Assembly (NCBI GenBank): GCA_944320015.1
Contig: CALUFO010000005.1
Span: forward strand, 1-24,000
Direction of reading: 5' to 3'
DNA: 24,000 nucleotides
DNA from: an uncultured Barnesiella sp.
GTDB taxonomy: Bacteria > Bacteroidota > Bacteroidia > Bacteroidales > Barnesiellaceae
The notes under the pieces were generated by a model. It did no database searches. It was given only the letters and a program-made list of their open reading frames with translations, and was not told the origin of the DNA. Within the stretch, counting starts at the first letter, position 1. Every line of letters starts with the position of its first letter. Of the stretch, positions 2,128-21,901 are shown in pieces. Made by a program: the position numbers and the translations under genes.

Positions 2128-2153
2128 TAAAAGTTATAACCATTTATAGAAAG

Positions 2154-2190
2154 CGTGGCAGCTCGCAAGAGCGGTCACGTTTTTTATTTT
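2154..2190 (+). terminator. Intrinsic terminator of rplU-rpmA
   Basis: CGUGGCAGCUC-GCAA-GAGCGGUCACG forms a 10-bp stem with one A:G mismatch and a GNRA loop, followed by TTTTTTATTTT. It lies 27 nt after the rpmA stop. Confidence 0.8.
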
Positions 2191-2268
2191 CCGCCCCGCT
2201 CCCCTGCCACCCGGTGCCCCTTCGCCCGGTTTTCCCGGCATAGAGGAATACATTTGCAATCGGGGAAG

Positions 2269-2425
2269 GAGTTTAAATATATCTCCTGCCGATTACAGTA
2301 AGCACAGCGGGAGAGTTTAGACTATTCACACTTCTCCTCTGTGTGGCGAAGCCATATAGGGGAGAAACCGAGGGACGGTAGTCCCGAGGAGAGGGGTTGA
2401 AAAAATGACGGAGGGGGTTAAATAT
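2269..2425 (+). repeat. Stem-loop repeat tract (family 1): one complete forward unit plus fragments
   Basis: Hairpin core UUCUCCUCUGUGUGGC-GAA-GCCAUAUAGGGGAGAA at 2332-2366. Second stem-loop GGGAC-GGUA-GUCCC at 2372-2385. 3' modules GAGGAGAGGGGTTGAAAAA and GACGGAGGGGGTTAAAT. Upstream fragments GGAGTTTAAA and CACAGCGGGAGAGTTTAGAC, and the CCTGCCGATTACAGTAA module at 2285-2301. Confidence 0.8.
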
Positions 2426-2492
2426 TTTCATACACAGTATTTAATATTGTGGTAGAGTGGCGCTTCACCAGTGCCGGAAGAGTTGAAGGATA

Positions 2493-2533
2493 CAAAAAAG
2501 AGGCCTACCCAAAAATCGGGAAGGCCTCTTTTA
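2493..2533 (-). terminator. Intrinsic terminator downstream of the ferredoxin gene (structurally bidirectional)
   Basis: 8-bp stem AGAGGCCT (2499-2506) / AGGCCTCT (2522-2529), extended by inner CCC/GGG pairs. An A run on the plus strand at 2494-2498 gives a T run on the minus strand; a T-rich stretch also follows on the plus strand. Confidence 0.7.
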
Positions 2534-2555
2534 ATTTAATCGTTACTTGTATTAC

Positions 2556-2798: not shown

Positions 2799-2853
2799 AA
2801 AAATGAGGGGGAATTTGTGAACCGATTGTGCTTTTAAGTCACCTTCACGCTAA

Positions 2854-3052
2854 AAACTATCTACACTCCTCCTCTCTACCCGGTGCCAGTAGCATAGCGG
2901 AAAGGCGTTGAAGCACACAGATAAATGTGCATTTACTTGAAAATATAGAGGTGATTTTAAACTCCTCCTCTGTGTTTTGCGGAGCAAAATATAGGGGAGG
3001 TGGCACGCAGTGACGGAGGGGTTAGAGAAAAAATTGGAAAATAAAAAGGAAG
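2854..3052 (+). repeat. Solo copy (U0) of the X segment plus forward hairpin unit that is triplicated at 3553-4191
   Basis: Aligns with 3574-3772 with 4 substitutions that I counted (about 98 percent). Hairpin core CCUCCUCUGUGUUUUGC-GGA-GCAAAAUAUAGGGGAGG at 2964-3000. It ends ATTGGAAAATAAAAA, like the last tandem copy. Confidence 0.85.
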
Positions 3053-3080
3053 TCTTATCGATATTTCAATTTTAGCAAAT

Positions 3081-3088
3081 TATATTTG
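3081..3088 (+). promoter_or_regulatory. Candidate -7 box (TATATTTG) for the DUF559 gene
   Basis: Exact TAnnTTTG match 20 nt upstream of the GTG start at 3109. No clean TTTG -33 element. Confidence 0.4.
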
Positions 3089-3108
3089 TAATTCATTTAT
3101 AATGAGAT

Positions 3109-3507
3109 GTGAGCCGGAATTATAACAAAAAAGAAAAAGAGAAGCAACGAAAAGAACTTCGCTCCTATGGGACAAAATATGAAGCGACCATGTGGCTCCT
3201 TCTGAAAAATAGAAACATCGAAGGTGTAAGATTCCGCCGCCAATTTTCGGTGGGAGAATATATATTGGACTTTTACAGCCCCGAATTAAAATTGGCAATA
3301 GAATTGGACGGGAATGACCACTATTCCATTGAAGGCAGCTACAAAGACAGGGTTCGGGATAAGTGGCTTTCTACCCATGGTATAGAAGTATTGAGAATTG
3401 AAAACTGTGCGATTTTCGAAAACCAGCAAGCTGTAATAGAGCTGTTGAAAGAGACTGTTCAACGATTAAAATCTTCGGCTCAAAATTATAGAAAAGAAAT
3501 ATTATAA
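3109..3507 (+). CDS. DUF559 / Vsr-like (PD-(D/E)xK fold) endonuclease domain protein
   Basis: 132 aa. The pattern LRSYGTKYEATMWLLLKNR..FRRQFSVGEYILDFYSPELKLAIELDGNDHY...RDKWLSTHGIEVLRIEN matches the DUF559 family layout as I know it. GTG start; the only upstream ATGs are out of frame or hit a stop at once. Visibly AT-rich compared with neighbouring genes. Confidence 0.75.
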   Translation: MSRNYNKKEKEKQRKELRSYGTKYEATMWLLLKNRNIEGVRFRRQFSVGEYILDFYSPELKLAIELDGNDHYSIEGSYKDRVRDKWLSTHGIEVLRIENCAIFENQQAVIELLKETVQRLKSSAQNYRKEIL

Positions 3508-3510
3508 GGC

Positions 3511-3577
3511 TTTAACCCCCTCGCCTACGGCACTCCCCCTATATTCCCTTACGGGAACACAGAGGGAGAGTTTAAAC
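3511..3577 (-). repeat. Complete reverse-orientation hairpin unit (GUAA subtype) starting 3 nt after the DUF559 stop
   Basis: TTTAACCCCCTCGCCTACGGCACTCCCCCTATATTCCCTTACGGGAACACAGAGGGAGAGTTTAAAC. Core at 3533-3570. It is the reverse complement of the forward archetype seen at 7042-7112 and 19415-19478. Confidence 0.85.
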
Positions 3578-4191
3578 TATCTACACTCCTCCTCTCTACC
3601 CGATGCCAGTAGCATAGCGGAGAGGCGTTGAAGTACACAGATAAATGTGCATTTACTTGAAAATATAGAGGTGATTTTAAACTCCTCCTCTGTGTTTTGC
3701 GGAGCAAAATATAGGGGAGGTGGCACGCAGTGACGGAGGGGTTAGAGAAAAAATTGAAAAATAAAGGGAACACAGAGGGAGAGTTTAAACTATCTACACT
3801 CCTCCTCTCTACCCGATGCCAGTAGCATAGCGGAGAGGCGTTGAAGTACACAGATAAATGTGCATTTACTTGAAAATATAGAGGTGATTTTAAACTCCTC
3901 CTCTGTGTTTTGCGGAGCAAAATATAGGGGAGGTGGCACGCAGTGACGGAGGGGTTAGAGAAAAAATTGAAAAATAAAGGGAACACAGAGGGAGAGTTTA
4001 AACTATCTACACTCCTCCTCTCTACCCGATGCCAGTAGCATAGCGGAGAGGCGTTGAAGTACACAGATAAATGTGCATTTACTTGAAAATATAGAGGTGA
4101 TTTTAAACTCCTCCTCTGTGTTTTGCGGAGCAAAATATAGGGGAGGTGGCACGCAGTGACGGAGGGGTTAGAGAAAAAATTGGAAAATAAA
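3553..4191 (+). repeat. Perfect tandem triplication of a 213-bp mosaic unit
   Basis: Unit starts (GGGAACACAGAGGG) at 3553, 3766 and 3979. Copies 1 and 2 are identical where compared; copy 3 differs only near its end. Forward hairpin cores at 3684-3720, 3897-3933 and 4110-4146. Confidence 0.95.
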
Positions 4192-4195
4192 AAAG

Positions 4196-4335
4196 TTTAA
4201 AGCATCTACACTTCTCCTCTGTGTGGCGACAGCCATATAGGAGAGAAACAGAGGGAGAATTTAAATGTACCTCCTTGCCGGTTACAAATCGGAGAAGGTT
4301 GACCCATTTAAACTATCACACGCAGGGAGGGTATT
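4196..4335 (+). repeat. Stem-loop repeat tract (family 1)
   Basis: Core UUCUCCUCUGUGUGGC-GACA-GCCAUAUAGGAGAGAA at 4212-4247 with one mismatch. Followed by ACAGAGGGAGAATTTAAA, the CCTTGCCGGTTACAAAT module (4273-4289) and further degenerate fragments. Confidence 0.75.
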
Positions 4336-4404: not shown

Positions 4405-6555
4405 TTAGAATACAACTACTTTTTGGTTGCCGATGACGTAGATGCCGGCGGGCAGGGTTACGATGTTGGAACCCTCGGTGAGTTCGATTTGGCGAACTTG
4501 CGCACCGGTGAGGGCATATACGGCAACGGTAGCGGCTTCGGAGGCTTCGATTGTTACCTGTCCTTTACCGCCGATAATCTTCATACCGGCAACTTCTACG
4601 CTTGCTATACCCGTGGCGGAGCCTTCTTTGATCATAAGGTCGGTAATTTCCCAAGTAGACGCTCCGGCGGTGGTACTTGTATATTTGAAAGCAAAACGGA
4701 TAGGAGCGGTGAGATCTTTCAATTCGATGTCGCCCGATTCGGCCCATTCGAAATAACCCTCAGACCAAGCTGCACGATCGGTAATATTCACCCACTCGGC
4801 GTCGCCGGGTTGCATGGTATTGGGATCATAGTCGCTCGAATAAAGCAGTTCCAATGCATTCCCTTCATAGCTGTAAGCTGAACTGAAATTCAAGATGATG
4901 TTATTGGCGGTTACAGCCGGTGAGATGAGGTAGGCTTCACTGTCGGTATTTTTACCATTGATATACCCGCTTACTTTGGCGCCATATTGAGAATCGGACT
5001 CCCATTGAGCCTCTCCTACGGTGGTGATAGAGAGCCAATCGCCGAGTCCCGATTTGAAGTCGATCGAGTGGGGCAATGAGGCCGACAAAGCCCTTACTGT
5101 CAAGGTATATTGGGCAACGCCTTCGCGATAGGTGTCATCGGCTTCGGTCGTAGCTTTGATAATGGTGGTTCCTGGGCCTACTATGGTCACGAGGCCTTCG
5201 GCGCTAATCGTAGCCACTTCTTGGTCGCTGCTGCTATAAGTAATCGGTTTTTCGGGGGTAGCCGTGGCGGCGCTGTTGTAGGTGAGGCCTTCGGCAAAGA
5301 AGAGGTCTTTGTTGCCGCTCACTTCGTTGAATGTTACTTTTACGTCTTGTTTTCCGTCGTTTTCTTCCAATTTGTAGAGAGTGAGATCTTGTTGCTTGCT
5401 TGATGCCTTATAGCAAGCAAACCATTTAGAGCCGCTGTTGTATTGTAAGAAGCGGTCGGTATATTGTACATTCGTAGCTCGGAATTTATCGTTTTCTATT
5501 GAAAAATTCCATTCACATACTTTGTCTTCAAAATCAGAAAGAGAAGCATCATTACTATTTTCACCGGCAACATAAGTTCCATTATTACTAATGCTTACAC
5601 CGTTCGTTGTTGTAATAATATCCCAAACAATAGAGGCATCGGGGTTAAAAATCGCATCATCATCTGAAACATTGATTGTCGTGGCTGCAATTCTACTACC
5701 ATTGGCTTGGTTTACCATAGCCATGGTATTCTTGTAGGCGATTACATACTTACCATCGGTCAATTCGTCGATAGAAGAGATTTTTGTAAAGATTTTAGCT
5801 GTTGCCGGGTCAATCACGGTCAAGGTATATTCTACGGAAGCGGCATCAAAAGTCTCGGTCTCGGCTACTTCGGCTTTGATCACCGTCGTACCACCGGCAA
5901 CCAGTGTAACAAGCCCCTTTTGATTGATCGTAGCTACCTCGGTGTCGCTACTGCTGTATGTAATAGTGGCATCGGAGACCGTAGTGGCGGCGCTGCTGTA
6001 GCTGCCCTCGGTGAGTTGTTTGGTCACATCGCCCGTGATGTCGGTAAAGGCAAGCTCGGGATTTTGCAACGAGGAACTGGCAATGGGCTTGATATCGATT
6101 TGCGTGATATAGGTGGCTGCGCTACCTGCTTCGATAGTAATACTTGCACTTGGAGATGTTACCGAAAGAGTGAGCGGAGATGCTCCTTGCACCGTATTAT
6201 CGGTGCCGGTTTCTGTAATGGAAGCATCATTTTTAGTACAGTCAAAAGTAATCGTTACATCAAAGCCATTTGAGGTTTCAAAGGTCGGGGAGAGTAATAC
6301 TCCTTTATCACCTTTGAGCTGTATCCGGGCCTTAGTATTTTCGCGCATTACAGATTGAACGAAAGTCCAAGTATAATCTACACCATCGCTACCGACGAAT
6401 ATTTGCTCCCCTTTCGATGCGTCATAGCTGGAGCCTGTTACTTTTGACCAATCGTTAAATGTGACATCTTGTGTAAGAGAAACCGCCCAAGCGGAAGTTC
6501 CACAAAGCAAAGCCACCAATAGGATAGCTGTGCGTAAAAAGTAATTTTTCTTCAT
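4405..6555 (-). CDS. T9SS-secreted surface protein with two Ig-like (Big_2-type) repeats and a C-terminal T9SS sorting domain; function unknown
   Basis: 716 aa. Signal peptide MKKNYFLRTAILLVALLCGTSAWA. Two internal repeats: TYSSSD(T/Q)EVATI...GLVT(L/I)V..GTT(V/I)IKA...YTLTV. The C-terminal ~70 aa (GIASVEVAGMKIIGG...VYALTGAQV...LPAGIYVIGNQKVVVF) fit the T9SS CTD pattern. Confidence 0.8.
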   Translation of the reverse strand: MKKNYFLRTAILLVALLCGTSAWAVSLTQDVTFNDWSKVTGSSYDASKGEQIFVGSDGVDYTWTFVQSVMRENTKARIQLKGDKGVLLSPTFETSNGFDVTITFDCTKNDASITETGTDNTVQGASPLTLSVTSPSASITIEAGSAATYITQIDIKPIASSSLQNPELAFTDITGDVTKQLTEGSYSSAATTVSDATITYSSSDTEVATINQKGLVTLVAGGTTVIKAEVAETETFDAASVEYTLTVIDPATAKIFTKISSIDELTDGKYVIAYKNTMAMVNQANGSRIAATTINVSDDDAIFNPDASIVWDIITTTNGVSISNNGTYVAGENSNDASLSDFEDKVCEWNFSIENDKFRATNVQYTDRFLQYNSGSKWFACYKASSKQQDLTLYKLEENDGKQDVKVTFNEVSGNKDLFFAEGLTYNSAATATPEKPITYSSSDQEVATISAEGLVTIVGPGTTIIKATTEADDTYREGVAQYTLTVRALSASLPHSIDFKSGLGDWLSITTVGEAQWESDSQYGAKVSGYINGKNTDSEAYLISPAVTANNIILNFSSAYSYEGNALELLYSSDYDPNTMQPGDAEWVNITDRAAWSEGYFEWAESGDIELKDLTAPIRFAFKYTSTTAGASTWEITDLMIKEGSATGIASVEVAGMKIIGGKGQVTIEASEAATVAVYALTGAQVRQIELTEGSNIVTLPAGIYVIGNQKVVVF

Positions 6556-6721
6556 AGATATATTGTTTTAGAGTTTATAGTACCTGTTTTTGGTTTATTC
6601 AATCCCTTTCATATAGTCTAACAAAAATATAAAATAGGAATGGAAAGAAAAAGTTTTTTTGTGAGAAAGTTGCGATATTTCACAGAAATGTCATAAGGGT
6701 AGGTTCTTCCGGGGAATTTTC

Positions 6722-6788
6722 TTTACCCCCTCTCCTCGGGACTACCGTTCCTCGGTGTCTCCCCTATATCACTTCGTGACACAGAGGA
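6722..6788 (-). repeat. Reverse-orientation hairpin unit (CAC-GAA-GUG subtype), truncated at its outer end by the family-2 element
   Basis: CCCCCTCTCCTCGGGACTACCGTTCCTCGGTGTCTCCCCTATATCACTTCGTGACACAGAGGA. Core at 6758-6788. It is the reverse complement of the unit at 22021-22085. Confidence 0.8.
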
Positions 6789-6988
6789 TTTCTATTTGTT
6801 CATTCTTCTCAACAGCGAGAAGAACGAACCAAGAAGCGCCGCCGCTGTTATCGGGCTTATTCGCTCGGTCGCTGCTGCCTCCGTCGGGGGTTGCGGAACT
6901 CGCTTCGCTCAGACAGTCCTCGCCCGGGTTCCTCCGCCGGTAGGCGCCCTCCCGGCCCGATAAAGGCGGTTTCCCTACCGGACATGCT
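6780..6988 (+). repeat. GC-rich ~208-bp element, copy A (family 2)
   Basis: Aligns over its full length with the reverse complement of 19651-19857, with about 10 substitutions and one 1-nt indel. Contains the hairpin TTCTTCTC-AACAGC-GAGAAGAA and the core GGGGTTGCGGAACTCGCTTCGCTCAGACAGTCCTCGCCC. Confidence 0.9.
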
Positions 6989-7041
6989 TGCCATTATTTT
7001 TTACCTTTTTCTCTTTGATTTTAAGTGACAAAAGGGATACA

Positions 7042-7225
7042 TTTAAACTCCTCCTCTGTGTTCCCGTAAGGGAATATAGGGGAGGTGGCACGCAGTGACG
7101 GAGGGGTTTAAATGTTTTATGACGGAGGTGGTGCAGCCCTCGGGGGTTAAATCCCGTGAGGGGGTTGTAAATTCTATTTGAGCCTCGCAAGAGACGGAGG
7201 GGAAGTGCCCGTTAGGGGGCGAGAG
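7042..7225 (+). repeat. Archetypal forward hairpin unit (7042-7112) plus a string of 3' modules
   Basis: TTTAAACTCCTCCTCTGTGTTCCCGTAAGGGAATATAGGGGAGGTGGCACGCAGTGACGGAGGGGTTTAAA. Core at 7050-7085. Followed by GACGGAGGTGGTGCAGCCCTCGGGGGTTAAAT and GACGGAGGGGAAGTGCCCGTTAGGGGGCGAGAG, running up to the ispF stop. Confidence 0.85.
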
Positions 7226-8954: not shown

Positions 8955-11900
8955 TTATTGCGTGATGACGACTATTTTTTTTGTGGGGGTGGCTATTGTC
9001 CCGGTCGATGTCTCGAAGTATCCCCGGCAATAATATTGCCCGGCGGGCACCCGCTTGCCGCTGGTGTCGCGGAGGTGCCAGATGACGGGGAAGGGGTTGC
9101 TGCCTGACTCGTACGTCCATACTTCTTGTCCCAGATTGTCGGTAATGGAGACGAGCGCCCGTTTCAAGTCGGCGATTTCGTTTCCGTCTTGGTCTTGGCA
9201 CGAGAGCGTGGCTTTCTCGGTTATGGGATTCTCGGCCACCGATAGTGTATAGGTATCGTCACCGCCGTTTATTCTAAACGAGATCGAGGACTCTGATGAG
9301 TTCCCCAATGAGTCGAATACTTTGAAGGTGAGCGTGTGCGGCCCGTCGGATAAATGGGGCAGCGGGTATATAAACTCGCCCCCGGGAATATCGCTGTCGG
9401 TCATGGGCGAGTAGTAGTGCAGGGTGTTTTCTCCGATGCTTCCGCCGTCGAGCCACAGGGTCATTTGCCGTCCCAAGCCATTGCCTGTCCATATCCCGGA
9501 GGGATCGGAGAATCGGCAGATAAAGGTCGCGGGATTGTGGTACAACTCGCCCTCGGCAAACGATTCGTCGTTTAGCCCGATAAATTCGATTTGCGGGCCT
9601 TGTGTCTCTTTTGCCGTTGTTTCGCTGTCTGTGCCAATCAGCAGTTGTTCGGTATATCCGTTGGCTTCCCGGCCGGTTTCGTCGTAGGCGTACAGGTTGA
9701 GCAAACCCGATTTCCCCGAGCGGGAGTTTTCGGCCGGCAATATGATGGTCGTTTTGAATAGCCCGTTTCGCACTGTCCCTTTGCCTGTGGACAACAGGTC
9801 GGGGCGGTATTTATAGGTCCAAGTCTGGTCGTCTTGGTTGCCGAGCGTCGTGAATGTTTTCTCCTCGTCGTAGAGCGAGTAGAATATTTCACCGTTGAAA
9901 TCTGAGAGCAATTTGTTTTGGTAGGAGCGTATTTCGCCCTCGATCGTATAGCTTCCGCCGGGAATCAATTCTACCGGGTCGCCGCTGCTATTCCCGTTTA
10001 TTTGGGTGACTTGTATTGTGTGTTCGGGGTAGGTCAGTTTCAACGCCGGGTCGCCGATGAGAATATAGTTGAGCTTGTTTTTGTCGATTTCGTTGTTGAA
10101 GTCGCGCTTGGCTAATCGGAGTATGTCGCCGACTCGCACGGGTTTACCGTCGGAGTCCCGGTCGAGCAGGCGTTTCATCAGCCGGCGGTTGATTTTGTCG
10201 TTCCCGTCGGTATATACGACACGGGTGGTGGTGATCAGTCCTATGGCTCCACCGGTAGGATTGAGGAATACCGACTCGCCGGACGAAAACTCGTTCTCGT
10301 CGTCGAACTGGGTGTAGTTGCAAGTAACTGTGATAAAGAGCGGTAGCCGGCTGTTGTCGAGGTTGTCCATTTCGACCCGTGAGAGGAGCCCTTCACCGGT
10401 GAGTCCCACTTCGGGGTCGTTGTGCCCGATATAGTTGAAGACGAGCATTCCATCTTCAAATTGTTTCATCAGTTCCCGGTTGGCGTCGTGGTTCTTTTTG
10501 GAGACGGGGTCTAAGTGGTAGGAGTCGATGAAGATTTTGTTTACCCTGAATTGCAACCTTGGGTTTGCGGTGTTTTTAAGCAGCAGAGTGTCGCTCCCCA
10601 TATCGGCCTGCTCGGTGTGAATCGCTTCGTCGCCGTCGTCGGCAGCTACGCAAATGCTGTTTTTCCACGGAGAAAAGTCGGTGTTGCCTACATATCGATA
10701 CATTTTATCGACCACCAATTGCGCCTCTTTGACCGACGTTACGGGGAACCGCCCGATGCCCAGACACACTTTGTCGACTTTTATTTCGGTGCCCGTGTTG
10801 TCTTCCAAGAAGCCAAAATAATCTTCCAGCACAAAGGACTCCCGCTCGTCGATGCTGGTTTTGGATTGGTAGGTCAGCAGCATGTTGCACTCGGGGGTGT
10901 GCAGTGACGTCATGGCCTTGCGGTTATCGTAGGAGCCGTCGCCGAACAGGAGCAGGTAGCGAGGCTGTGGATTCGAGCCGTTGGCCCGGTCGTAGAACAT
11001 CTTCATGAGCCTCCGGTAGGCTGTCGCGTCGGGAGTTCCCGAGGAAAATTCGTTGAATATTTTTTCTTGTTCGACCACAACGGCCGTGAGGCCCTCGGCT
11101 CGATGCAACTGCGCCATTCGTTCGGCTTGGTCTTGGAACGCCGCCGGGGTGATGATGGTGAGGTCGGCGATGTCCAAGGCGTGTAAGTTCTGGTTCTCGA
11201 TTTTCCGCACGAAAACGGGCGAGGGGAAATCCCGTTGGGTATCGAAAGCGATAAATTCGCGCAGCTGAGTGTCTTCGGGCGCAAACGAGCAAACCCCGTT
11301 TTCAAAGGAGGTGAGTATGTTTTTGGGGGCGTGAGGGGTGGTGACGTCCCATACCCGTGTAGACTCGGTGCATTGCCCTATTTGGTAATAGTTGCCGCTG
11401 GAGCGGTCGATGAACCGGAATGACACCTGCCCGTCGTATAGTTGCAGCTTGCGTGTGTAGTTGAGCCTTATATAGTCGAGATGGGCGCAAGAGGTGACAC
11501 CGGTGCTGGAATAGCGCAGGCCTATGGTCGAGGTTTCCGAGGCTTCTTCGGCCGTTTTGATAGGAGAGATTTGCCGGAGGAACTCGTGTGTGTCGTAATA
11601 TTTTGTAATCCGGTTGGAGGTGTTGACCGGCAGGTCGACACCGTTGTAAGAGATGTATATATACCCCTCGGCGTCGCTAATCTTCGCACCGAACGATACC
11701 CTTATTTTTATGGACTTGGGCAGTGCGCCGGGCAAATGAAATGTAAACTCTTGGCTGGGATCCGACAAGAAATCTTCTCCAAAGAAATTTTGCCCGGTAC
11801 GACCCACCGAAATCAACTCTTTCTCGTGAATCGTATAGTCGTTGAACGAAGATACCGCGGTCGTATTCTCTCCTGTGGGGAGGGGTGTCGAAACAGTGGG

Positions 11901-12362
11901 AAACGGGGTTTCGGCAGTCTCCTTATCGGTCAGGAAGTAGTAGGCGTGGGTCGAGTAGGGGTGGAGCCGATGAATAAATTCTTGGTTGTAGGGGTCGAGC
12001 TCCCATAGGGTCGTTCCTGTCGAATAGAAGTAGAGTTTGCCGTCTTGTCGCCACAGCGGTATTTGGGGCAAATCGTCGATATAATCGTCGTCGTTTGAGA
12101 AGAGTTCGTCGATGACGAGCCCGCCGTACCCGAAGAGCTTTACTTTCGAGGGGTCGGAGAATCCCCACGCTTTCAAAGAGTCGTCGGATATTTGGTAAAT
12201 CCCGGCGTCGGTAGTCGATATTTTTACCCAATTGCCTTCGGCCAAAACCGAACTTGCCGCATAGTCGCTGCTACTTCGCCCGTGTGCGGGGAGAAGCGTG
12301 ACTATGGCGCATATTATCGTGAGCAATATGGGCGTTTTTCGTATGGTGCGAGTCATTGGCAT
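8955..12362 (-). CDS. porU: T9SS sortase PorU (peptidase C25 / gingipain family)
   Basis: About 1135 aa. Its size, its position upstream of porV, and the gingipain-like dyad context (YIGHN... and RLPLFITVTCNY) support PorU. It keeps its own C-terminal beta-rich domain. The track start at 12383 is a TTG that overlaps the upstream gene, so I prefer ATG 12362 (or 12356), which gives MPMTRTIRKTPILLTIICAIVTLLPAHG as the signal peptide. Confidence 0.85.
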   Translation of the reverse strand: MPMTRTIRKTPILLTIICAIVTLLPAHGRSSSDYAASSVLAEGNWVKISTTDAGIYQISDDSLKAWGFSDPSKVKLFGYGGLVIDELFSNDDDYIDDLPQIPLWRQDGKLYFYSTGTTLWELDPYNQEFIHRLHPYSTHAYYFLTDKETAETPFPTVSTPLPTGENTTAVSSFNDYTIHEKELISVGRTGQNFFGEDFLSDPSQEFTFHLPGALPKSIKIRVSFGAKISDAEGYIYISYNGVDLPVNTSNRITKYYDTHEFLRQISPIKTAEEASETSTIGLRYSSTGVTSCAHLDYIRLNYTRKLQLYDGQVSFRFIDRSSGNYYQIGQCTESTRVWDVTTPHAPKNILTSFENGVCSFAPEDTQLREFIAFDTQRDFPSPVFVRKIENQNLHALDIADLTIITPAAFQDQAERMAQLHRAEGLTAVVVEQEKIFNEFSSGTPDATAYRRLMKMFYDRANGSNPQPRYLLLFGDGSYDNRKAMTSLHTPECNMLLTYQSKTSIDERESFVLEDYFGFLEDNTGTEIKVDKVCLGIGRFPVTSVKEAQLVVDKMYRYVGNTDFSPWKNSICVAADDGDEAIHTEQADMGSDTLLLKNTANPRLQFRVNKIFIDSYHLDPVSKKNHDANRELMKQFEDGMLVFNYIGHNDPEVGLTGEGLLSRVEMDNLDNSRLPLFITVTCNYTQFDDENEFSSGESVFLNPTGGAIGLITTTRVVYTDGNDKINRRLMKRLLDRDSDGKPVRVGDILRLAKRDFNNEIDKNKLNYILIGDPALKLTYPEHTIQVTQINGNSSGDPVELIPGGSYTIEGEIRSYQNKLLSDFNGEIFYSLYDEEKTFTTLGNQDDQTWTYKYRPDLLSTGKGTVRNGLFKTTIILPAENSRSGKSGLLNLYAYDETGREANGYTEQLLIGTDSETTAKETQGPQIEFIGLNDESFAEGELYHNPATFICRFSDPSGIWTGNGLGRQMTLWLDGGSIGENTLHYYSPMTDSDIPGGEFIYPLPHLSDGPHTLTFKVFDSLGNSSESSISFRINGGDDTYTLSVAENPITEKATLSCQDQDGNEIADLKRALVSITDNLGQEVWTYESGSNPFPVIWHLRDTSGKRVPAGQYYCRGYFETSTGTIATPTKKIVVITQ

Positions 12363-12372
12363 GAATGGATTG

Positions 12373-12990
12373 CTATTTGACAAAGAAGTCGAGAACTTTG
12401 GTTTCCCCCAAATATCCCACGAGGTGGTCGCCTATTTTTACGGGGCCTACACCCGCCGGGGTTCCGGTGAAGATGATGTCTCCGATCTTCAAGGTATAGA
12501 ATTGGCTGACATAGGCGATAATCTCGTCGATGTGAAAAATCATGTCGTTGCTGTTCCCGCGCTGGACGGTGGTGCCGTTGATCGATAACGAGAAGTCTAA
12601 GTTGTCGGCTTTGCGGGGTTGATCGGGCAGCGGTAAGAACTGTCCGATAGGAGCCGAGTAGTCAAAACCCTTGGCGATGTCCCACGGGCTGCCCGAGGCG
12701 CGCGCCTCGGCCTGTTTGTCCCGGGCGGTGAAATCGATCCCTACGGTGACGGCGTCGTAGTAGCGGTGCGCAAATTTGGGGGCGATATTTTTCCCCAACC
12801 GCGAAATGTGAAATACCAGCTCGGTCTCGTATTCGATGCGGTCGGAGAACTGAGGCAGGAAGAACGGTTTCCCGTTTTTTAGCAGGGCAGTCTCGGGTTT
12901 CAGAAAGACAACCGGATAGGGCGGAATGTCTGTTCGATTCATTTCCGCGTTATGAGCATTGTAGTTCCAACCGACGGCGATTATTTTCAT
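12373..12990 (-). CDS. Fumarylacetoacetate hydrolase (FAH) family protein
   Basis: 205 aa. Motifs E(T)ELVFHI, GIDFTARDKQ...GSPWDIAKGFD and IIFTGTPAGVGPVKIGD are typical of the FAH / 2-keto-4-pentenoate hydratase fold. Confidence 0.85.
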   Translation of the reverse strand: MKIIAVGWNYNAHNAEMNRTDIPPYPVVFLKPETALLKNGKPFFLPQFSDRIEYETELVFHISRLGKNIAPKFAHRYYDAVTVGIDFTARDKQAEARASGSPWDIAKGFDYSAPIGQFLPLPDQPRKADNLDFSLSINGTTVQRGNSNDMIFHIDEIIAYVSQFYTLKIGDIIFTGTPAGVGPVKIGDHLVGYLGETKVLDFFVK

Positions 12991-15861: not shown

Positions 15862-18800
15862 TTACTGGCCGGTTACGCACAATTTCTTGGTGCGAGTGGT
15901 CTCGTGCTGGTTGTCGGTCGAGATAATGGCTTTGTACAGATAGATTCCGCCGGGGACCCTGCTGCCGCTGCTGTTTGTCAAATCCCATGTGACAGGATAG
16001 GACCGATACATGTCGGAGAGCCCTTTGCCGGTGTATCGCCATACTTCCACGCCCATGAGGTTGTAGACGCATATCGTTACATTTATCAACGCTTCGGGGC
16101 GATTGTGCCTCAAATAGAAGTTGGTCGATGTGCTGGCGGGGTTTTGGTCGGCATATAGGTCATAGATAACCGGTTTCAGCCCTTGTTCTACGGCGAAGGC
16201 GATTTCCACCTCCGACGAATTGTTCTCGGTATCCCATATTTTCAGGCGCAGGGTGTGCTCGCCGTCGCTTAATCCGTCCAGCGGGTAGGCGATAGAGCCT
16301 CGTCCAAACTCGCCTAACGCAGGCTCGAAGTAGGAGGCCACATCGGTATATACGGTCTGGTCGTCGAGTGTCACGGTCATCTGGTGGCCGATACCGGCGT
16401 CGGAGATATTCAATCCCGACTCGTCGAATACTTCGGCGATTAACAGCGGCGATTCATTGACTATGTCGCCGTTCTCGAAGTCCTCGGAATTGAGGTAGGC
16501 GTAGTATATTTCGGGCCCTTCGAAATCCTCGTTGGAGGAGTCGTTGAACCCGCCGACGATGAAATTCGATTCGTTTCCGCTTCCCTCTTGACCCTCGTCG
16601 TTGTAGCAATAGAGGTTTATGAGGCCTTTGTCATCGGCGAAGTTGATTTCCCGGGGAACTTTGAATGCGATTTCGAAAGTCCCGTTGACGATAGAGTCTT
16701 TGCCTACGAATAGCCGGTTGCTCCGTTGCTTGAACTCGATGGCTTCTCCCTGCTCGCCGTATCCATGGGTTACGGTGGTGATTTCCGAGTCGTAGACAGT
16801 GGGATAGATGACCCCGTTGTAGTCGGTCGCCTTTTCTCCCGAGGGGGTATATATCTCCCCTTTTATGGATACCGAGTCTCTCGCCTGTATGGTAGGGGTT
16901 GTTTGTGTGATGTCGAAACCGTTCACCTCGGTCACTTTTATTTGGTAATCGGGATATAATAGCCGCAAGGCCGGGTCGCCCAGCAGGGTGTAGTTCAGCT
17001 TGTTGCTGTCGGTCTGTTGGATATTGCATTTGGCTTCGCGCAGAATATCGCCGAGGCGGGGATATTCGAGGTTTTCGTCTTTTTTGAAGATTTCCCGGGC
17101 GATGCCGCTATTGATGTAGTGGTTGTCGCTGATGTAGACGACCCGGGTGGTGGTGATGAGCGCGATGCCGCCTCCGTCGGGGTTCAGGCACAGGATTTCG
17201 CCGGCCGAGGTGCTCTCGTGGTCATAGCGCCCGAAGTCGCAAGTGGCCGTGATGAACAGCGGTAGCCGTTTCAAGTACATCGATTGTATGTCGGTGATGT
17301 TCAGCAAATTCTCGTGAGTCCATGCGACCGTGCTGCCGTGCCCGATGTAGTCGATGACCAGCACCCCGTCGTCCAAGACTTGGAGCAATTTCTTTTTGGC
17401 GGCGGGATATGTGCGCCCTGTGGAGGCGATTTCGGCCGTATAGGCGTCGATGTAGATTTTGTTGATAAAGCAGTGTGCGTCGCTGTTTTCCAGTATGGAG
17501 CAAATGTCTTCGGCTTGTTTCATGTGCGCCGCGTAGTTTTCGTCGTCGGCGACGACGCAAACTTGGTTTTTCCACGTCCCTTTGTCGCTGTTGTGGACGT
17601 AGTTGTAGAGTTTGTTTACCACATTTTGGGCTTCTTGCTCGCTTTGCACGGGCAGCCGCCCTACGCTCACACGGAGTTTGTCGGCGGCGATGGTTTGCCC
17701 GGAGTTGTCGTCGAGAAACCCGAAGTAGTCGTCGGTCGTATAGGAGGCCCGTTCGTCGGTGCCGGTGCCGTGCTGGTAAGTCAGCAGAGTGGGATATTTC
17801 ACATATTTGCCGGTTTCGCCTATTTTGCGATTGTCATATAGTCCTTTCCCGAAAAGCAGCAGGTATAGCTGTTTGCCGTTGGTGCCGCCTTCGCGGTCGA
17901 AAAACATTTTCATCAGCCGGCGATAGGCTGTGGCGTCGGGCGTACCCGAAGAAAACTCGTTGAACACGGTCTCGTGGTCGATGACGGCGACTTCCATGCC
18001 GTCGACTTCTTGGTGCAACCGGGCAATCTCTTCGGCATAGGCGATGTATTCTTTGGGAGTGAGAATCACCATGTCGGGGGTAGCCATGCCGTGCAGGTCT
18101 TGGTTGGCCACGGTCTCGATAAACTCTACCGAAGCCACGGTGGCCTGCTCGTCAAAAGCGATGTATTCTTCGTTATCCTTGGTGGGAACAAAACGGGCGT
18201 TGCCGTTGTCGTTACGGGGGATAATGTTTACAGGCTGTTGGGGGTTTGAGATGTCCCAAATGTGGATTGCCGGGGTATAGCCTTGCAGGCTGTAACAGCC
18301 ATTCTCGGGGAGTTGGGCCAACCTGAATTGAAGGCTCCCGTTGTAGAGTTGCAGCTTGCGCTTGTAGTTGAACCGGAAGTAGTCGAGGCGGGCTAAGGTG
18401 AGGCTCCCCCTGTTTTGCCGGAACAGCAGGTTGAAGTCGAGTTCTTCGCTGTCGAGGTAGATCTCTTTGAGCGTGGAGGTCGTTTTCACAAAATCGTAGG
18501 AACTTTCCGACCCCGACGAGATATTGTCGGTGTTGCTCTCGGGCAGAGTTTCGCCGTTGTGGGTGAAGATGAGCTTGCTGTTCCCACCTACCACTTTCGC
18601 GCCGAATGCCGTGCGCAGCTTTACCGGCGCCGAATTGTCTACTCCCGGTAATTCGAACGTGAAGTCCTGTGAGGCGTTGTAGCGGAAGTCCTCGCCTAAG
18701 AATAGCCGACCGGTCGAGCCGGGAGAGTATAGGTCTTGTTCATAAACGGCATGCTCGTCAAACGAGGTAATGTCGGTCATGCCGTCTGTGGCGCCGCCGT

Positions 18801-19293
18801 CGCGCTCGGACAACGTGGCGGTCTTGCTTTTGCTATCGGTGAGGAAGTAGTATCCGGCGATAGAATAAGGATTCTGCTCGTGGGAGTACTCGCCCGATCG
18901 CGAGTCGTATTTCCACGAAATAGGCCCTTGTGCGTAGAAAAGTATTTTGCTGTCGGTGTAGACGACCGGTATTTGGGGCAGGTCGTCAATATCGTTTTCA
19001 GAGAAAGTCTCGGGCAAAATGGCACCGCCATATCCAAACACAGTTACGGCCGAAGGATCGGAGAATCCCCATTTGCTCAGTTCTTGGTAGGTGATTTGAT
19101 GAATCCCCGACTCGTAAACGGCCACTTTCACCCACAGGCCGTCGGCCAGTTGCGAGTGCGAGGCGTAATGGTCGGCATTCAGCGCATGCGCCGTCGCCGA
19201 GACAAGAAGCGTCACGCACAGGCATATACCTGTGCGCAAGCGTCGCAGCGGGTTTGTAGTGAGTATATTATAATGTTTTACAATCTCTTTCAT
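15862..19293 (-). CDS. Second PorU-like peptidase C25 paralogue (about 1143 aa)
   Basis: Same length and architecture as porU. Shared blocks EFSSGTPDATAYRRLMKMF, LLLFG.G.YDNRK, RLPLFIT.TC and KLNY.L.GDPAL.L.YP. Gingipain-like IDYIGHGSTVAW and LFITATCDF. I prefer ATG 19293 (MKEIVKHYN...RRLRTGICLCVTLLVSATAHA), because the 35-codon track extension runs into a repeat unit. Confidence 0.85.
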   Translation of the reverse strand: MKEIVKHYNILTTNPLRRLRTGICLCVTLLVSATAHALNADHYASHSQLADGLWVKVAVYESGIHQITYQELSKWGFSDPSAVTVFGYGGAILPETFSENDIDDLPQIPVVYTDSKILFYAQGPISWKYDSRSGEYSHEQNPYSIAGYYFLTDSKSKTATLSERDGGATDGMTDITSFDEHAVYEQDLYSPGSTGRLFLGEDFRYNASQDFTFELPGVDNSAPVKLRTAFGAKVVGGNSKLIFTHNGETLPESNTDNISSGSESSYDFVKTTSTLKEIYLDSEELDFNLLFRQNRGSLTLARLDYFRFNYKRKLQLYNGSLQFRLAQLPENGCYSLQGYTPAIHIWDISNPQQPVNIIPRNDNGNARFVPTKDNEEYIAFDEQATVASVEFIETVANQDLHGMATPDMVILTPKEYIAYAEEIARLHQEVDGMEVAVIDHETVFNEFSSGTPDATAYRRLMKMFFDREGGTNGKQLYLLLFGKGLYDNRKIGETGKYVKYPTLLTYQHGTGTDERASYTTDDYFGFLDDNSGQTIAADKLRVSVGRLPVQSEQEAQNVVNKLYNYVHNSDKGTWKNQVCVVADDENYAAHMKQAEDICSILENSDAHCFINKIYIDAYTAEIASTGRTYPAAKKKLLQVLDDGVLVIDYIGHGSTVAWTHENLLNITDIQSMYLKRLPLFITATCDFGRYDHESTSAGEILCLNPDGGGIALITTTRVVYISDNHYINSGIAREIFKKDENLEYPRLGDILREAKCNIQQTDSNKLNYTLLGDPALRLLYPDYQIKVTEVNGFDITQTTPTIQARDSVSIKGEIYTPSGEKATDYNGVIYPTVYDSEITTVTHGYGEQGEAIEFKQRSNRLFVGKDSIVNGTFEIAFKVPREINFADDKGLINLYCYNDEGQEGSGNESNFIVGGFNDSSNEDFEGPEIYYAYLNSEDFENGDIVNESPLLIAEVFDESGLNISDAGIGHQMTVTLDDQTVYTDVASYFEPALGEFGRGSIAYPLDGLSDGEHTLRLKIWDTENNSSEVEIAFAVEQGLKPVIYDLYADQNPASTSTNFYLRHNRPEALINVTICVYNLMGVEVWRYTGKGLSDMYRSYPVTWDLTNSSGSRVPGGIYLYKAIISTDNQHETTRTKKLCVTGQ

Positions 19294-19374
19294 GTATCCT
19301 ATATAACGCAAAACCTCCCGAATTATTGCCGCAGGTAAAAATATTCGTTTGTTCTTCTCAGCGGTAGGTAGCAA

Positions 19375-19650
19375 ACTCTCCCTCTGTGCCCCTTGCAATC
19401 GGTAAGTGGATACTTTTAAACTCCCCTCTATGTTCCCGTAAGGGAATATAGGGGAGTGCCGTAGCGAGGGGGTTGAATCTCCTCTGCGTTTACTATAATC
19501 GGCAAGGCGGTACTTTCATTTAAACTCCTCCCCTGTGTTTTGCGGAGCAAAATATAGGGGAGGTGTCACGCAGTGACGGAGGGGTTTAAATGTTTTTATA
19601 ACAGCCATATAGGGGAGACACCGAGGAGAGGGGTTGAAAAAATAGCAAAC
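19375..19650 (+). repeat. Stem-loop repeat mosaic (family 1): two complete forward units plus fragments
   Basis: Cores at 19421-19456 (GUAA subtype) and 19527-19563 (GGA subtype, with U->C making a C-G pair). The GUCAC-GCA-GUGAC second hairpin at 19565-19577. The TTTACTATAATCGGCAAGG module at 19489-19507. A 3' partial unit at 19591-19645. Confidence 0.85.
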
Positions 19651-19857
19651 ATGTCCGGCAGGGAAAACCGCCTTTATCGGGCCGGGAGGACGCCTGCCGG
19701 CGGAGGAAACAGGGCGAGGACTGTCTGAGCGAAGCGAGTTCCGCAGCCCCCGACGGCGGCAGCGGCGGCCGAGCGAATAAGCCCGATAACAGCGGCGGCG
19801 CTTCTTGGTTCCTTCTTCTCGCTGTTGAGAAGAATGAACAAATAGAAATCCTCTGTG
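19651..19857 (-). repeat. GC-rich ~208-bp element, copy B (family 2), inverted relative to copy A
   Basis: Its reverse complement aligns end to end with 6780-6988 at about 95 percent identity, block by block by eye. Confidence 0.9.
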
Positions 19858-19910
19858 TTTTGCGGAGCAAAATATAGGGGAGGTGTCACGCAGTTTACGG
19901 AGGGGCTTAA
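19849..19910 (+). repeat. Forward hairpin unit abutting family-2 copy B
   Basis: UCCUCUGUGUUUUGC-GGA-GCAAAAUAUAGGGGAGG at 19849-19883, followed by TGTCACGCAGTTTACGGAGGGGCTTAAAC. Confidence 0.8.
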
Positions 19911-21833: not shown

Positions 21834-21901
21834 TCCTCCTCCCGGTGGAAGATTCCGGGCGAGGACTGTTTGAGCGCAGCGAGTTCCGCAGCCCCCGACG
21901 G
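21834..21901 (-). repeat. Partial copy of the family-2 core
   Basis: GGGCGAGGACTGTTTGAGCGCAGCGAGTTCCGCAGCCCCCGACGG, against GGGCGAGGACTGTCTGAGCGAAGCGAGTTCCGCAGCCCCCGACGG at 19712-19756. Two substitutions, same orientation as copy B. Confidence 0.75.

Follow-up and report, generated by a model that had tools for sequence, protein, structure and literature searches.

Repeats in which a pyrimidine arm and a purine arm enclose a loop and are followed, after a linker, by a G/T-rich segment that mirrors the purine arm were recognised in Escherichia coli in the early 1990s; they are present in hundreds of genomes, those of Enterobacter and cyanobacteria included. The architecture was noted first as BoxC, then as the potential intrastrand triplex (PIT) element and then as TM or TMECO (PMC4666352). 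TMECO is present in 23 copies in E. coli K-12 and in thousands across the proteobacteria, and triplex formation in vitro was demonstrated by Holder et al. in 2015, by circular dichroism (CD) and nuclear magnetic resonance (NMR), for TMECO only (PMC4666352). Raised rearrangement and genomic instability are reported at TM loci, and the triplexes block polymerases in vitro; a link of TM repeats to a function, gene class, transposase or integrase was not found by these authors (PMC4666352). In the present study, a stretch of 24,000 nucleotides from an uncultured Barnesiella sp. (contig CALUFO010000005.1 of assembly GCA_944320015.1, positions 1 to 24,000; the whole stretch is called the window below) was analysed with regard to a DUF559 gene that lies between inverted copies of a hairpin repeat, the copies being termed units. 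The units have, as far as can be read from their sequence, the intrastrand-triplex architecture of BoxC/PIT/TM repeats, and the association of such units with DUF559 genes proved specific in both directions and in many phyla. Literature searches on the gene family, the repeats, the motif sequences, and triplex combined with nuclease returned no paper in which DUF559 or ycjD is linked to these repeats; the sole trace was a table entry in which predicted inversion targets show an enrichment of DUF559 proteins (PMC9881135). Both components are of known kind; what the window contributes is a variant of the triplex repeat from Bacteroidales.

Approximately 21 units are distributed over seven intergenic clusters of the window, on both strands, and one more lies inside a gene. 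They resemble the published repeats in the order of their segments, in being intergenic, multi-copy, present on both strands and sometimes arranged as inverted pairs, and in being tied to local rearrangement and copy-number change. Units of other phyla follow the same plan, with a pyrimidine arm (e.g. CCCCTCCT), a loop, a purine arm (AGGAGGGG), a linker of 2-3 nt or a small G+C hairpin, and finally a tail rich in G and T (GGGGTGGT). This tail mirrors the purine arm, often with T in place of A, and covaries with the stem. Among 173 units adjoining DUF559 genes in other genomes, the tail was a perfect mirror in 66%, compared with 20% for a direct copy (p 1e-16); in the window units, 11-12 of 12 positions match the mirror and 7-9 the direct copy, and the variants GGGGAGG and GGGGAGA are paired with GGAGGGG and AGAGGGG, respectively. 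A mirror tail that is able to fold back on its hairpin fits the need of an antiparallel purine-motif triplex. This architecture had not been recognised in the first-pass annotation of the window. Because the tail is a mirror and purine-motif triplexes do not form in RNA (PMC4666352), the units are regarded as a DNA element and not as an RNA. A family for the units was not found in Rfam, either in a gathering-threshold search of the window or in a permissive search of six unit-bearing loci, which returned chance matches to miRNA and snoRNA families only.

The published search for TM repeats allowed loops of 1-6 nt, and the TMECO pattern was given as CCCTCNCCC-N3-6-GGGNGAGGG-N3-GGGNGAGGG (PMC4666352); the window units match neither. 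In contrast to TMECO, an inner A/T-rich stem containing G:T wobbles extends their first hairpin, the second linker comprises 7-26 nt and usually forms a small hairpin of its own where TMECO has a 3-nt second loop, and the stem reads CTCCTCT/AGGGGAG instead of CCCTCNCCC. On account of the long second linker and the other stem sequence they are a variant and not TMECO itself, with a second "loop" that is long and structured; the published search, limited to loops of 1-6 nt, would have missed them. Units with short linkers flank DUF559 genes in other phyla. A further difference from the published BoxC/PIT/TM repeats, for which no gene was reported, is the specifically associated DUF559 gene itself.

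Hairpin 1 of the A-, B-, C- and D-type units of the window (e.g. 2964-3000) keeps two G:T wobbles on the forward strand (GTGT opposite ATAT), and its apical stem covaries between TTTTGC/GCAAAA and TTCCC/GGGAA. Folding of this Barnesiella-type hairpin is therefore strand-specific, since the wobbles would be A:C mismatches on the other strand. The possibility that the wobbles serve as Vsr substrates was rejected, as they are confined to the Barnesiella subtype and the stems are perfect in units of other phyla. An integron attC reading of direct-orientation hairpins around a cassette was likewise rejected on reading the sequences: the loci stand singly between housekeeping genes, and the unit termini do not fit the attC core consensus.

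The 132-aa product of the open reading frame (ORF) was compared with family profiles, with homologues and with solved structures. It matched Pfam DUF559 (PF04480) with E 9.8e-27 and 93.4 bits (cut-off 20.6) over profile positions 3-107 of 109. The NCBIfam equivalog model of YcjD was matched with E 4e-17 and 62 bits, below its cut-off of 218, so that the protein is a relative of E. coli YcjD and not an equivalog. In an alignment of 33 homologues it kept 17 of 17 invariant columns (R18, E25, W29, F42, R44, Q45, Y51, I52, D54, F55, I64, E65, D67, G68, H71, D80 and R83), comprising the acidic/histidine core (D..E-x-D-G..H) and the N-terminal helices with R, E and W. The presumed catalytic residues, for which an alignment had been suggested as a check, are all retained (D54, E65, D67 and H71) and also align with those of the solved DUF559 protein 3hrl, which matches at E 7e-11 with the same core residues. 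An AlphaFold2 (AF2) model built on the homologue alignment had a predicted local distance difference test (pLDDT) score of 86 and a predicted template-modelling (pTM) score of 0.80. When this model was submitted to Foldseek, 3hrl was returned with E 9e-6, the catalytic domain of I-Bth0305I (3r3p) with E 3e-4, and the Vsr structures 1vsr and 1cw0 with E of approximately 2e-2 at a probability of at least 0.99; the other top matches were RAP-domain proteins of apicomplexan mitoribosomes, AbaSI and PvuRts1I. The original assignment to the DUF559/Vsr fold is borne out (Pfam match, invariant residues, model and Foldseek), and the protein is predicted to be an intact Vsr-fold nuclease of YcjD type.

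The Vsr family model itself gave no match to the protein at E up to 0.1, and no cytosine methyltransferase was present among the ten larger window ORFs scanned. A role as a component of a defence system was considered and rejected, PADLOC having matched the protein only at the level of domains, to the nuclease domains of large proteins. No report of nuclease activity for any member of the YcjD subfamily was found in the literature. The exact 132-aa protein is recorded on 51 metagenome contigs. Its close relatives P0013, P0015, P0019 and P0157 include products of 80-91 aa in which the N-terminus is lost or the C-terminus frameshifted, and for this reason pseudogenisation seems to be frequent in the clade. 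With 36-41% GC, the ORF region is AT-richer than the neighbouring genes (43-52%), as had been remarked on first inspection. As a side observation, many DUF559 ORFs read on into the downstream unit and thereby acquire C-terminal tails of the kind ..PPHPNPLPRGERE or ..SPSPQPSP (P0067, P0076, P0093, P0118 and P0119; E. coli L241, 1800-1850); such tails are repeat read-through outside the domain.

The association was quantified first from the gene to the unit. When one genome of each species was scanned, 80 DUF559 loci were obtained from many groups, including Bacteroidota, Cyanobacteria, Acidobacteriota, Desulfuromonadales, Planctomycetaceae, Omnitrophota and others, and a hairpin was defined as a perfect stem of at least 7 bp with an all-pyrimidine 5' arm (all-purine 3' arm). 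The density of hairpins was 2.18 per kb within 300 nt of the DUF559 gene and 0.118 per kb elsewhere in the same loci. At least one hairpin was present in 65% of the 123 intergenic regions flanking DUF559 genes compared with 8% of the 195 others from these loci (odds ratio (OR) 22, p 4e-28). Hairpins stood on both sides of the gene in 41 loci, 22 of which contained none elsewhere in up to 10 kb. Flanking repeats scoring at least 40 were inverted in 36% of the DUF559 loci (controls 1-2%) and direct in 58% (controls 4-9%); around these genes, direct repeats are no rarer than inverted ones. The former often measure 100-240 nt and enclose units, as do the X+A copies of the window.

For the opposite direction, from the unit to the gene, metagenomes were scanned with a generic short-linker unit pattern, which gave 120 loci with 141 units; 76 units, those with 700 nt or more of sequence to either side, were taken as informative. 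Nine of these 76 (12%) lay within 300 nt of a DUF559 gene. The layout of the window, forward unit upstream and reverse unit downstream, was adopted by 13 of the 15 DUF559-adjacent units in the metagenomes. When the families of 117 unit-adjoining ORFs were listed (top 25 of 162), DUF559 was the only one to recur beyond chance-level housekeeping genes, and no transposase or integrase was among the recurrent families of that list.

A homologue with 44% identity on Bacteroides-like contigs (L027) is situated in a tight gene row after ruvB, between the arms of a 65-nt inverted repeat that hold one CCTCCTCC..GGAGGAGG hairpin each; no other such hairpin is present in this 10.4-kb locus. Its close paralogue L118 stands in an unrelated gene row after namZ. 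Homology between the two extends from CTATCTC.. to ..GAGATA only, that is, from one tip of the inverted repeat to the other, with no relation between the flanks. L027/L118 is by this comparison a discrete element of ~0.5 kb with DUF559 as its only ORF, and the inverted units are carried by the element and not found at the target, because both move with the gene into unrelated sites. Several other non-syntenic DUF559 pairs likewise show homology bounded to the gene and its flanking units. A homologue of the window gene with 75% identity (L011, a related species) stands at another locus, where its neighbours are genes for a pantothenate kinase and a SusC-type protein; here too a forward unit is found on its upstream side and reverse units on its downstream side. 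Window positions 3038-3484 align to positions 5931-6376 of that locus with 76% identity, and the homology covers promoter and ORF only and stops at both ends. The promoter-like box that had been ascribed to the window gene lies within the 70-nt stretch kept beside this homologue (Table 1). Plasmids gave no sign of being the vehicle of the gene: only 11 records, mostly of megaplasmids or chromids, contain a relative.

Two further loci display repetition beside the gene and are given here as separate observations. In a Nitrospirota metagenome-assembled genome (MAG; L031, 4482-5853), a 400-bp array of CCCCTCTCCCC/GGGGAGAGGG units is closed by a perfect 24-nt inverted repeat. In Pedobacter alluvionis (L087, 4897-5020 and 5548-5672), the upstream unit, the promoter and the first DUF559 codons recur ~180 nt past the gene, suggestive of an incomplete tandem copy of the entire element.

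The same pairing of gene and unit was found in E. coli, where the DUF559 gene ycjD lies between sapF and fabI and is followed by two degenerate reverse units and then by one canonical forward TMECO. The gene fabI is the old envM, and the envM sequence paper is one of the two cited by Holder et al. for the first description of BoxC (PMC4666352). Approximately 62% of 5,426 complete E. coli genomes carry the ycjD block. In genomes without ycjD, homology to K-12 resumes ~40 nt past the TMECO, from which it follows that ycjD and the unit were gained or lost together; strains with the eef operon at the site are devoid of both ycjD and the adjoining unit, and this operon (eefRABCD) occupies the ycjD site in ycjD-less phylogroups (PMC12817139). 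A co-occurrence count, suggested in the first-pass annotation for Bacteroidales, was carried out with 60 E. coli genomes spread across the ranking: further unit matches numbered 10-21 (median 14) in genomes with ycjD and 1-16 (median 3) in those lacking it (p 3e-8). K-12 also contains ORF-less forward/reverse doublets with tails inward and a spacer of 17 nt, the gene-less form of the forward-ORF-reverse layout. Downstream of ycjD in K-12 (L242, 2300-2460, minus strand), the last ~45 nt of the gene and its degenerate reverse unit follow immediately a second time (GGAGACGGTGCTGGAGAATATTC...), which resembles on a small scale the direct repeats at other DUF559 genes.

At the window locus itself, the description given on first inspection was upheld in every element. 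The ORF is enclosed by units in inverted orientation, the termini are TTTAAAC and GTTTAAAC, and one copy of a segment X plus forward unit A stands to the left (2852-3052) and three stand to the right (3553-4191). The left X+A copy differs from the tandem copies by exactly four substitutions and shares the ending ..TTGGAAAATAAAAA with the last tandem copy only. A refinement concerns the termini. Hairpin 1 of unit A comprises 17 bp with a pyrimidine-rich 5' arm, a purine-rich 3' arm and G:T wobbles, and its 12-nt tail, which faces the gene, matches the mirror of the purine arm at 11 of 12 positions compared with 8 of 12 for a direct repeat. Unit B begins 3 nt past the stop codon, is 91% complementary to a forward unit at 7042-7087, also turns its tail towards the gene and has a mirror match of 12/12 by hand reading. 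Its inner stem is TTCCC..GGGAA where that of unit A is TTTTGC..GCAAAA; the two units are of different subtype, and the inverted "termini" of the window cassette are consequently imperfect inverted repeats. The left X+A is one copy of a ~200-bp direct repeat around the gene, whose right-hand copy is the first X+A of the tandem array. The 5' end of X, CTATCTACACTCCTCC, is similar to the terminal sequence CTATCTCTATTCCCCTCC of the L027/L118 element. The tandem array gives rise to a spurious 194-aa minus-strand ORF with a repeating peptide (3549-4133), a 171-aa version of which was called as a gene in L007.

Table 1. Positions of the DUF559 gene and the adjoining repeat features in the window.
Feature	Position	Strand	Basis
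Segment X: degenerate unit (CTATCTACAC-TCCTCCTCTC..GGAAAGG) and an extra small hairpin	2852-2955	+	repeat comparison
Forward unit A: TTTAAAC terminus, hairpin 1 (2964-3000), hairpin 2 (3002-3014), G/T tail (3015-3026)	2956-3026	+	fold, copies
Upstream region with Bacteroidetes-type -7 box TATATTTG (3081-3088)	3038-3108	+	conservation with homologue at another locus
DUF559 (YcjD-like, Vsr-fold) nuclease gene, predicted	3109-3507	+	GTG start, 132 aa; profile match, invariant residues, fold
Reverse unit B: C-rich mirror tail (~3514-3522), hairpin 2 (3523-3531), hairpin 1 (3532-3570), terminus GTTTAAAC	3511-3577	-	fold, repeats
Three exact tandem copies of a 213-bp unit (right half of B + X + A)	3553-4191	+	100% identity
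Further forward unit, type D, closing the repeat cluster before the convergent Big_2/type IX secretion system (T9SS) gene	4194-4265	+	repeats, fold

Sister strains differ at this locus in the number of 213-bp units: the gap between the DUF559 gene and the next gene measures 472, 683 or 898 bp, corresponding to 1, 2 or 3 copies. Two alleles are devoid of the DUF559 gene. In L023 the order is ferredoxin, single X+A, unit D and Big_2, and in L024 the X+A leads straight into the junction of the tandem units; recombination between X+A copies would suffice to derive the one allele as well as the other. In this comparison with gene-less loci, which had been proposed as a means of defining the insertion boundaries, gain or loss of the gene among sister strains maps to the ~200-bp direct X+A repeats and not to the inverted termini. 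The single X+A of L023 is compatible with either insertion or deletion as the first event. The surroundings of the ferredoxin-DUF559-Big_2 block also vary, the left neighbour being rplU-rpmA (window, L010) or a Cys/Met-metabolism gene (L002-L008) and the right neighbour ispF-porV (window) or an OmpA/TPR gene and queA (L001, L004 and L007); both breakpoints fall within unit clusters (window 2128-2555 and 6556-7225). In the strains compared, changes of gene neighbourhood fall at unit clusters, and in gut Bacteroidales the units break metagenome assemblies, many contigs ending at them.

The reading that we favour, though we would put it somewhat short of an even chance, is that the DUF559 gene and the hairpin units form one selfish genetic system. 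A more specific version, in which YcjD-type DUF559 nucleases are dedicated partners of BoxC/PIT/TM repeats, recognise the folded triplex-hairpin and propagate both through break-induced recombination, is put forward tentatively. The compact form would be that of the window: forward unit, promoter and DUF559 ORF, reverse unit, with the tails inward. The tail of a unit would lie on its hairpin as the third strand of an intrastrand purine-motif triplex, and the Vsr-fold nuclease would recognise the folded or duplex unit and nick or cut there. Recombinational repair with other unit-bearing loci would then copy, duplicate or delete units and the adjoining gene, the outcome being many units that stand alone, inverted doublets without an ORF, direct repeats of some length at the flanks, tandem arrays, deletions and rearrangements of the locus. 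The units of Barnesiella would have proliferated into most of the larger intergenic spaces, with the window locus as a resident intact gene copy, which would now evolve by unequal recombination between the ~200-bp X+A repeats to give 1-3 copies of the 213-bp unit and gene-less alleles. That the protein binds or cuts the units, drives their spread and causes their recombinational copying is what we infer. The suggestion in the first-pass annotation that the protein might be the partner of the repeat family is supported as regards the specific association in both directions.

Several observations weigh against one selfish system. Unit orientation around DUF559 genes is mixed overall (upstream 24 forward and 29 reverse, downstream 33 forward and 41 reverse) and is unlike that of a simple terminal-inverted-repeat transposon. 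Most units are solo, 88% of the informative ones having no adjoining DUF559 gene. No target-site duplication was seen at the ends of L027/L118, and an exact-pattern scan of metagenomes returned no empty site for the L027 element. The correlation between ycjD and unit count in E. coli is confounded by phylogroup. The co-occurrence is also incomplete: units in the absence of DUF559, named at the outset as a finding that would speak against a partnership, do occur in some E. coli lineages, O157:H7-type strains keeping ~12 units without ycjD, so that units persist there in the absence of this gene. In the species of the window, the exact protein was found at one locus in all 24 contigs with no sign of recent movement, and the loss of the gene is explained, as the alleles read, by ordinary recombination between direct repeats. 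Finally, we know of no strand-transfer or transposition chemistry of a lone PD-(D/E)xK or Vsr-fold nuclease; mobilisation must for this reason run via host recombination, which is conjecture.

The prevalence of solo units and their persistence in ycjD-less E. coli would also be accounted for if a free-standing, homing-type DUF559 gene used older and independent units as landing sites or as homology, with the units spreading by other means such as slippage or non-B DNA recombination. Integration at a resident unit would give just those unit-containing long direct repeats that flank most DUF559 genes, the filled and single-X+A alleles of the window locus fit integration or excision at X+A, and the protein is structurally akin to a homing endonuclease. 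This explanation is nevertheless considered unlikely: it does not accommodate the 22 loci in which up to 10 kb contain no units besides the two at the flanks of the gene, the movement of both inverted units with the gene into unrelated sites in L027/L118, or the way in which the sequence subtype of the unit tracks the DUF559 locus across very distant phyla. Capture of the gene by a pre-existing array, as originally envisaged for the window, is possible for that single locus but does not explain the recurrence of the same kind of flanking unit in many phyla, genomes without another unit within 10 kb included, or the L027/L118 boundaries.

We regard it as distinctly improbable that the gene is a host caretaker, whether DUF559 were a structure-specific repair nuclease for units that stall replication and destabilise the genome, and hence were needed wherever units are acquired, or the units regulated the gene in cis. 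Such a role would leave unexplained why cassettes bounded by inverted repeats stand at unrelated intergenic sites, why pseudogenes are frequent, why some genomes hold multiple copies and members of one species differ in presence or absence, and why the gene is physically placed between units. In its favour are the instability of TM loci and the in vitro block of polymerases by triplexes (PMC4666352), the nature of Vsr-family enzymes as repair nucleases, the appearance of Caulobacter VsrA (DUF559) in a DNA-damage context (PMC12907096), and the larger number of units in E. coli with ycjD.

Within the window alone, the bracket of the DUF559 gene by units is unremarkable, since units are present in 7 of the 9 intergenic gaps that measure 170 nt or more, and a gene flanked by them is to be expected. 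Coincidence, that is, a small horizontally acquired gene carried as passive cargo in a unit-saturated gap and bracketed through local duplications, hence fits the window, where the two flanking units differ in subtype and the sister-strain indels are bounded by direct repeats instead of inverted termini, but it is contradicted by the cross-genome enrichment, by the loci with units only at the flanks of the gene, by DUF559 as the sole recurrent unit neighbour (families listed: top 25 of 162) and by the same pairing in E. coli, and is deemed very improbable indeed.

Among described gene-repeat systems, the repetitive extragenic palindromes (REPs, REPINs) with their REP-associated tyrosine transposases (RAYTs) are the closest in outline. 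A RAYT is a Y1 HUH tyrosine transposase, and REPs carry a GTAG/CGTC tag. Common to both systems are a single- or low-copy gene flanked by a short structured repeat in inverted orientation, numerous intergenic copies that are solo or form inverted doublets, and an implied strand-specific folding; the analogy drawn in the first-pass annotation was apt to this extent. It does not extend to the components: the associated protein here is a PD-(D/E)xK/Vsr-fold nuclease and not a HUH transposase, the units are triplex-hairpins without the tag, and direct flanking repeats are common around DUF559 genes.

Homing endonucleases of the EDxHD (Vsr-like) group, e.g. I-Bth0305I (PMC3384342 and PMC3239194), share with the DUF559 protein the fold (3r3p, E 3e-4) and the acidic/histidine pattern of E65, D67 and H71, as well as the patchy presence, the pseudogenes and the several genomic contexts that are hallmarks of selfish genes. 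They differ in that the DUF559 gene is connected with no intron or intein and encodes no long DNA-recognition domain, that structured repeats flank it where a homing gene splits a host gene, and that its motif is E-x-D-x3-H (E65-L-D67-G-N-D-H71). The alleles without the gene (L023 and L024) are explained by recombination between repeats. Vsr and Vsr-like repair nucleases belong to the same superfamily, and the Caulobacter VsrA, which acts in the context of DNA damage, contains a DUF559 domain (PMC12907096); unlike Vsr proper, the window protein gives no match to the Vsr model, and its conserved neighbours are repeats and not a methylase. With insertion sequences (IS) and MITEs (miniature inverted-repeat transposable elements), the L027/L118 segment has in common that inverted termini delimit it, the arms in the window being imperfect and of different subtype; it is set apart from them by the lack of an evident target-site duplication and by a Vsr-fold nuclease as the only ORF, with no transposase of a known family.

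The DUF559 family is very large, and no role was found in the literature for its YcjD subfamily; the cross-phylum association provides the repeats and this subfamily each with a candidate explanation. E. coli K-12, with one ycjD and 23 TMECO units, makes the link testable. If YcjD-type nucleases are indeed the dedicated partners of the repeats, the two would represent a class of selfish element distinct from transposase-borne IS and MITEs, from REP/RAYT and from intron or intein homing, and would explain the genomic instability reported at triplex-motif loci. Should the nuclease act on the folded unit, this would be a case of a natural enzyme reading a DNA triplex, and short repeats would have a further route by which to spread without a transposase.

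The remaining genes of the window are ordinary, with housekeeping and type IX secretion functions. A second, G+C-rich repeat family, unrelated to the units, is represented by two inverted copies of 197 nt with 95% complementarity, 12.7 kb apart (6779-6975 and 19662-19858), with related pieces at 21838-21901 and ~43-317; a sequence resembling this repeat adjoins units in L011. Two paralogous Peptidase_C25 (PorU-like) genes of ~1,150 aa (8955-12383 and 15862-19398) stand on the same strand, 6,907 bp apart, and keep stretches of 70-74% nucleotide identity. Both paralogues are bracketed by the G+C-rich inverted pair, which could lead to inversion of the segment between its copies.

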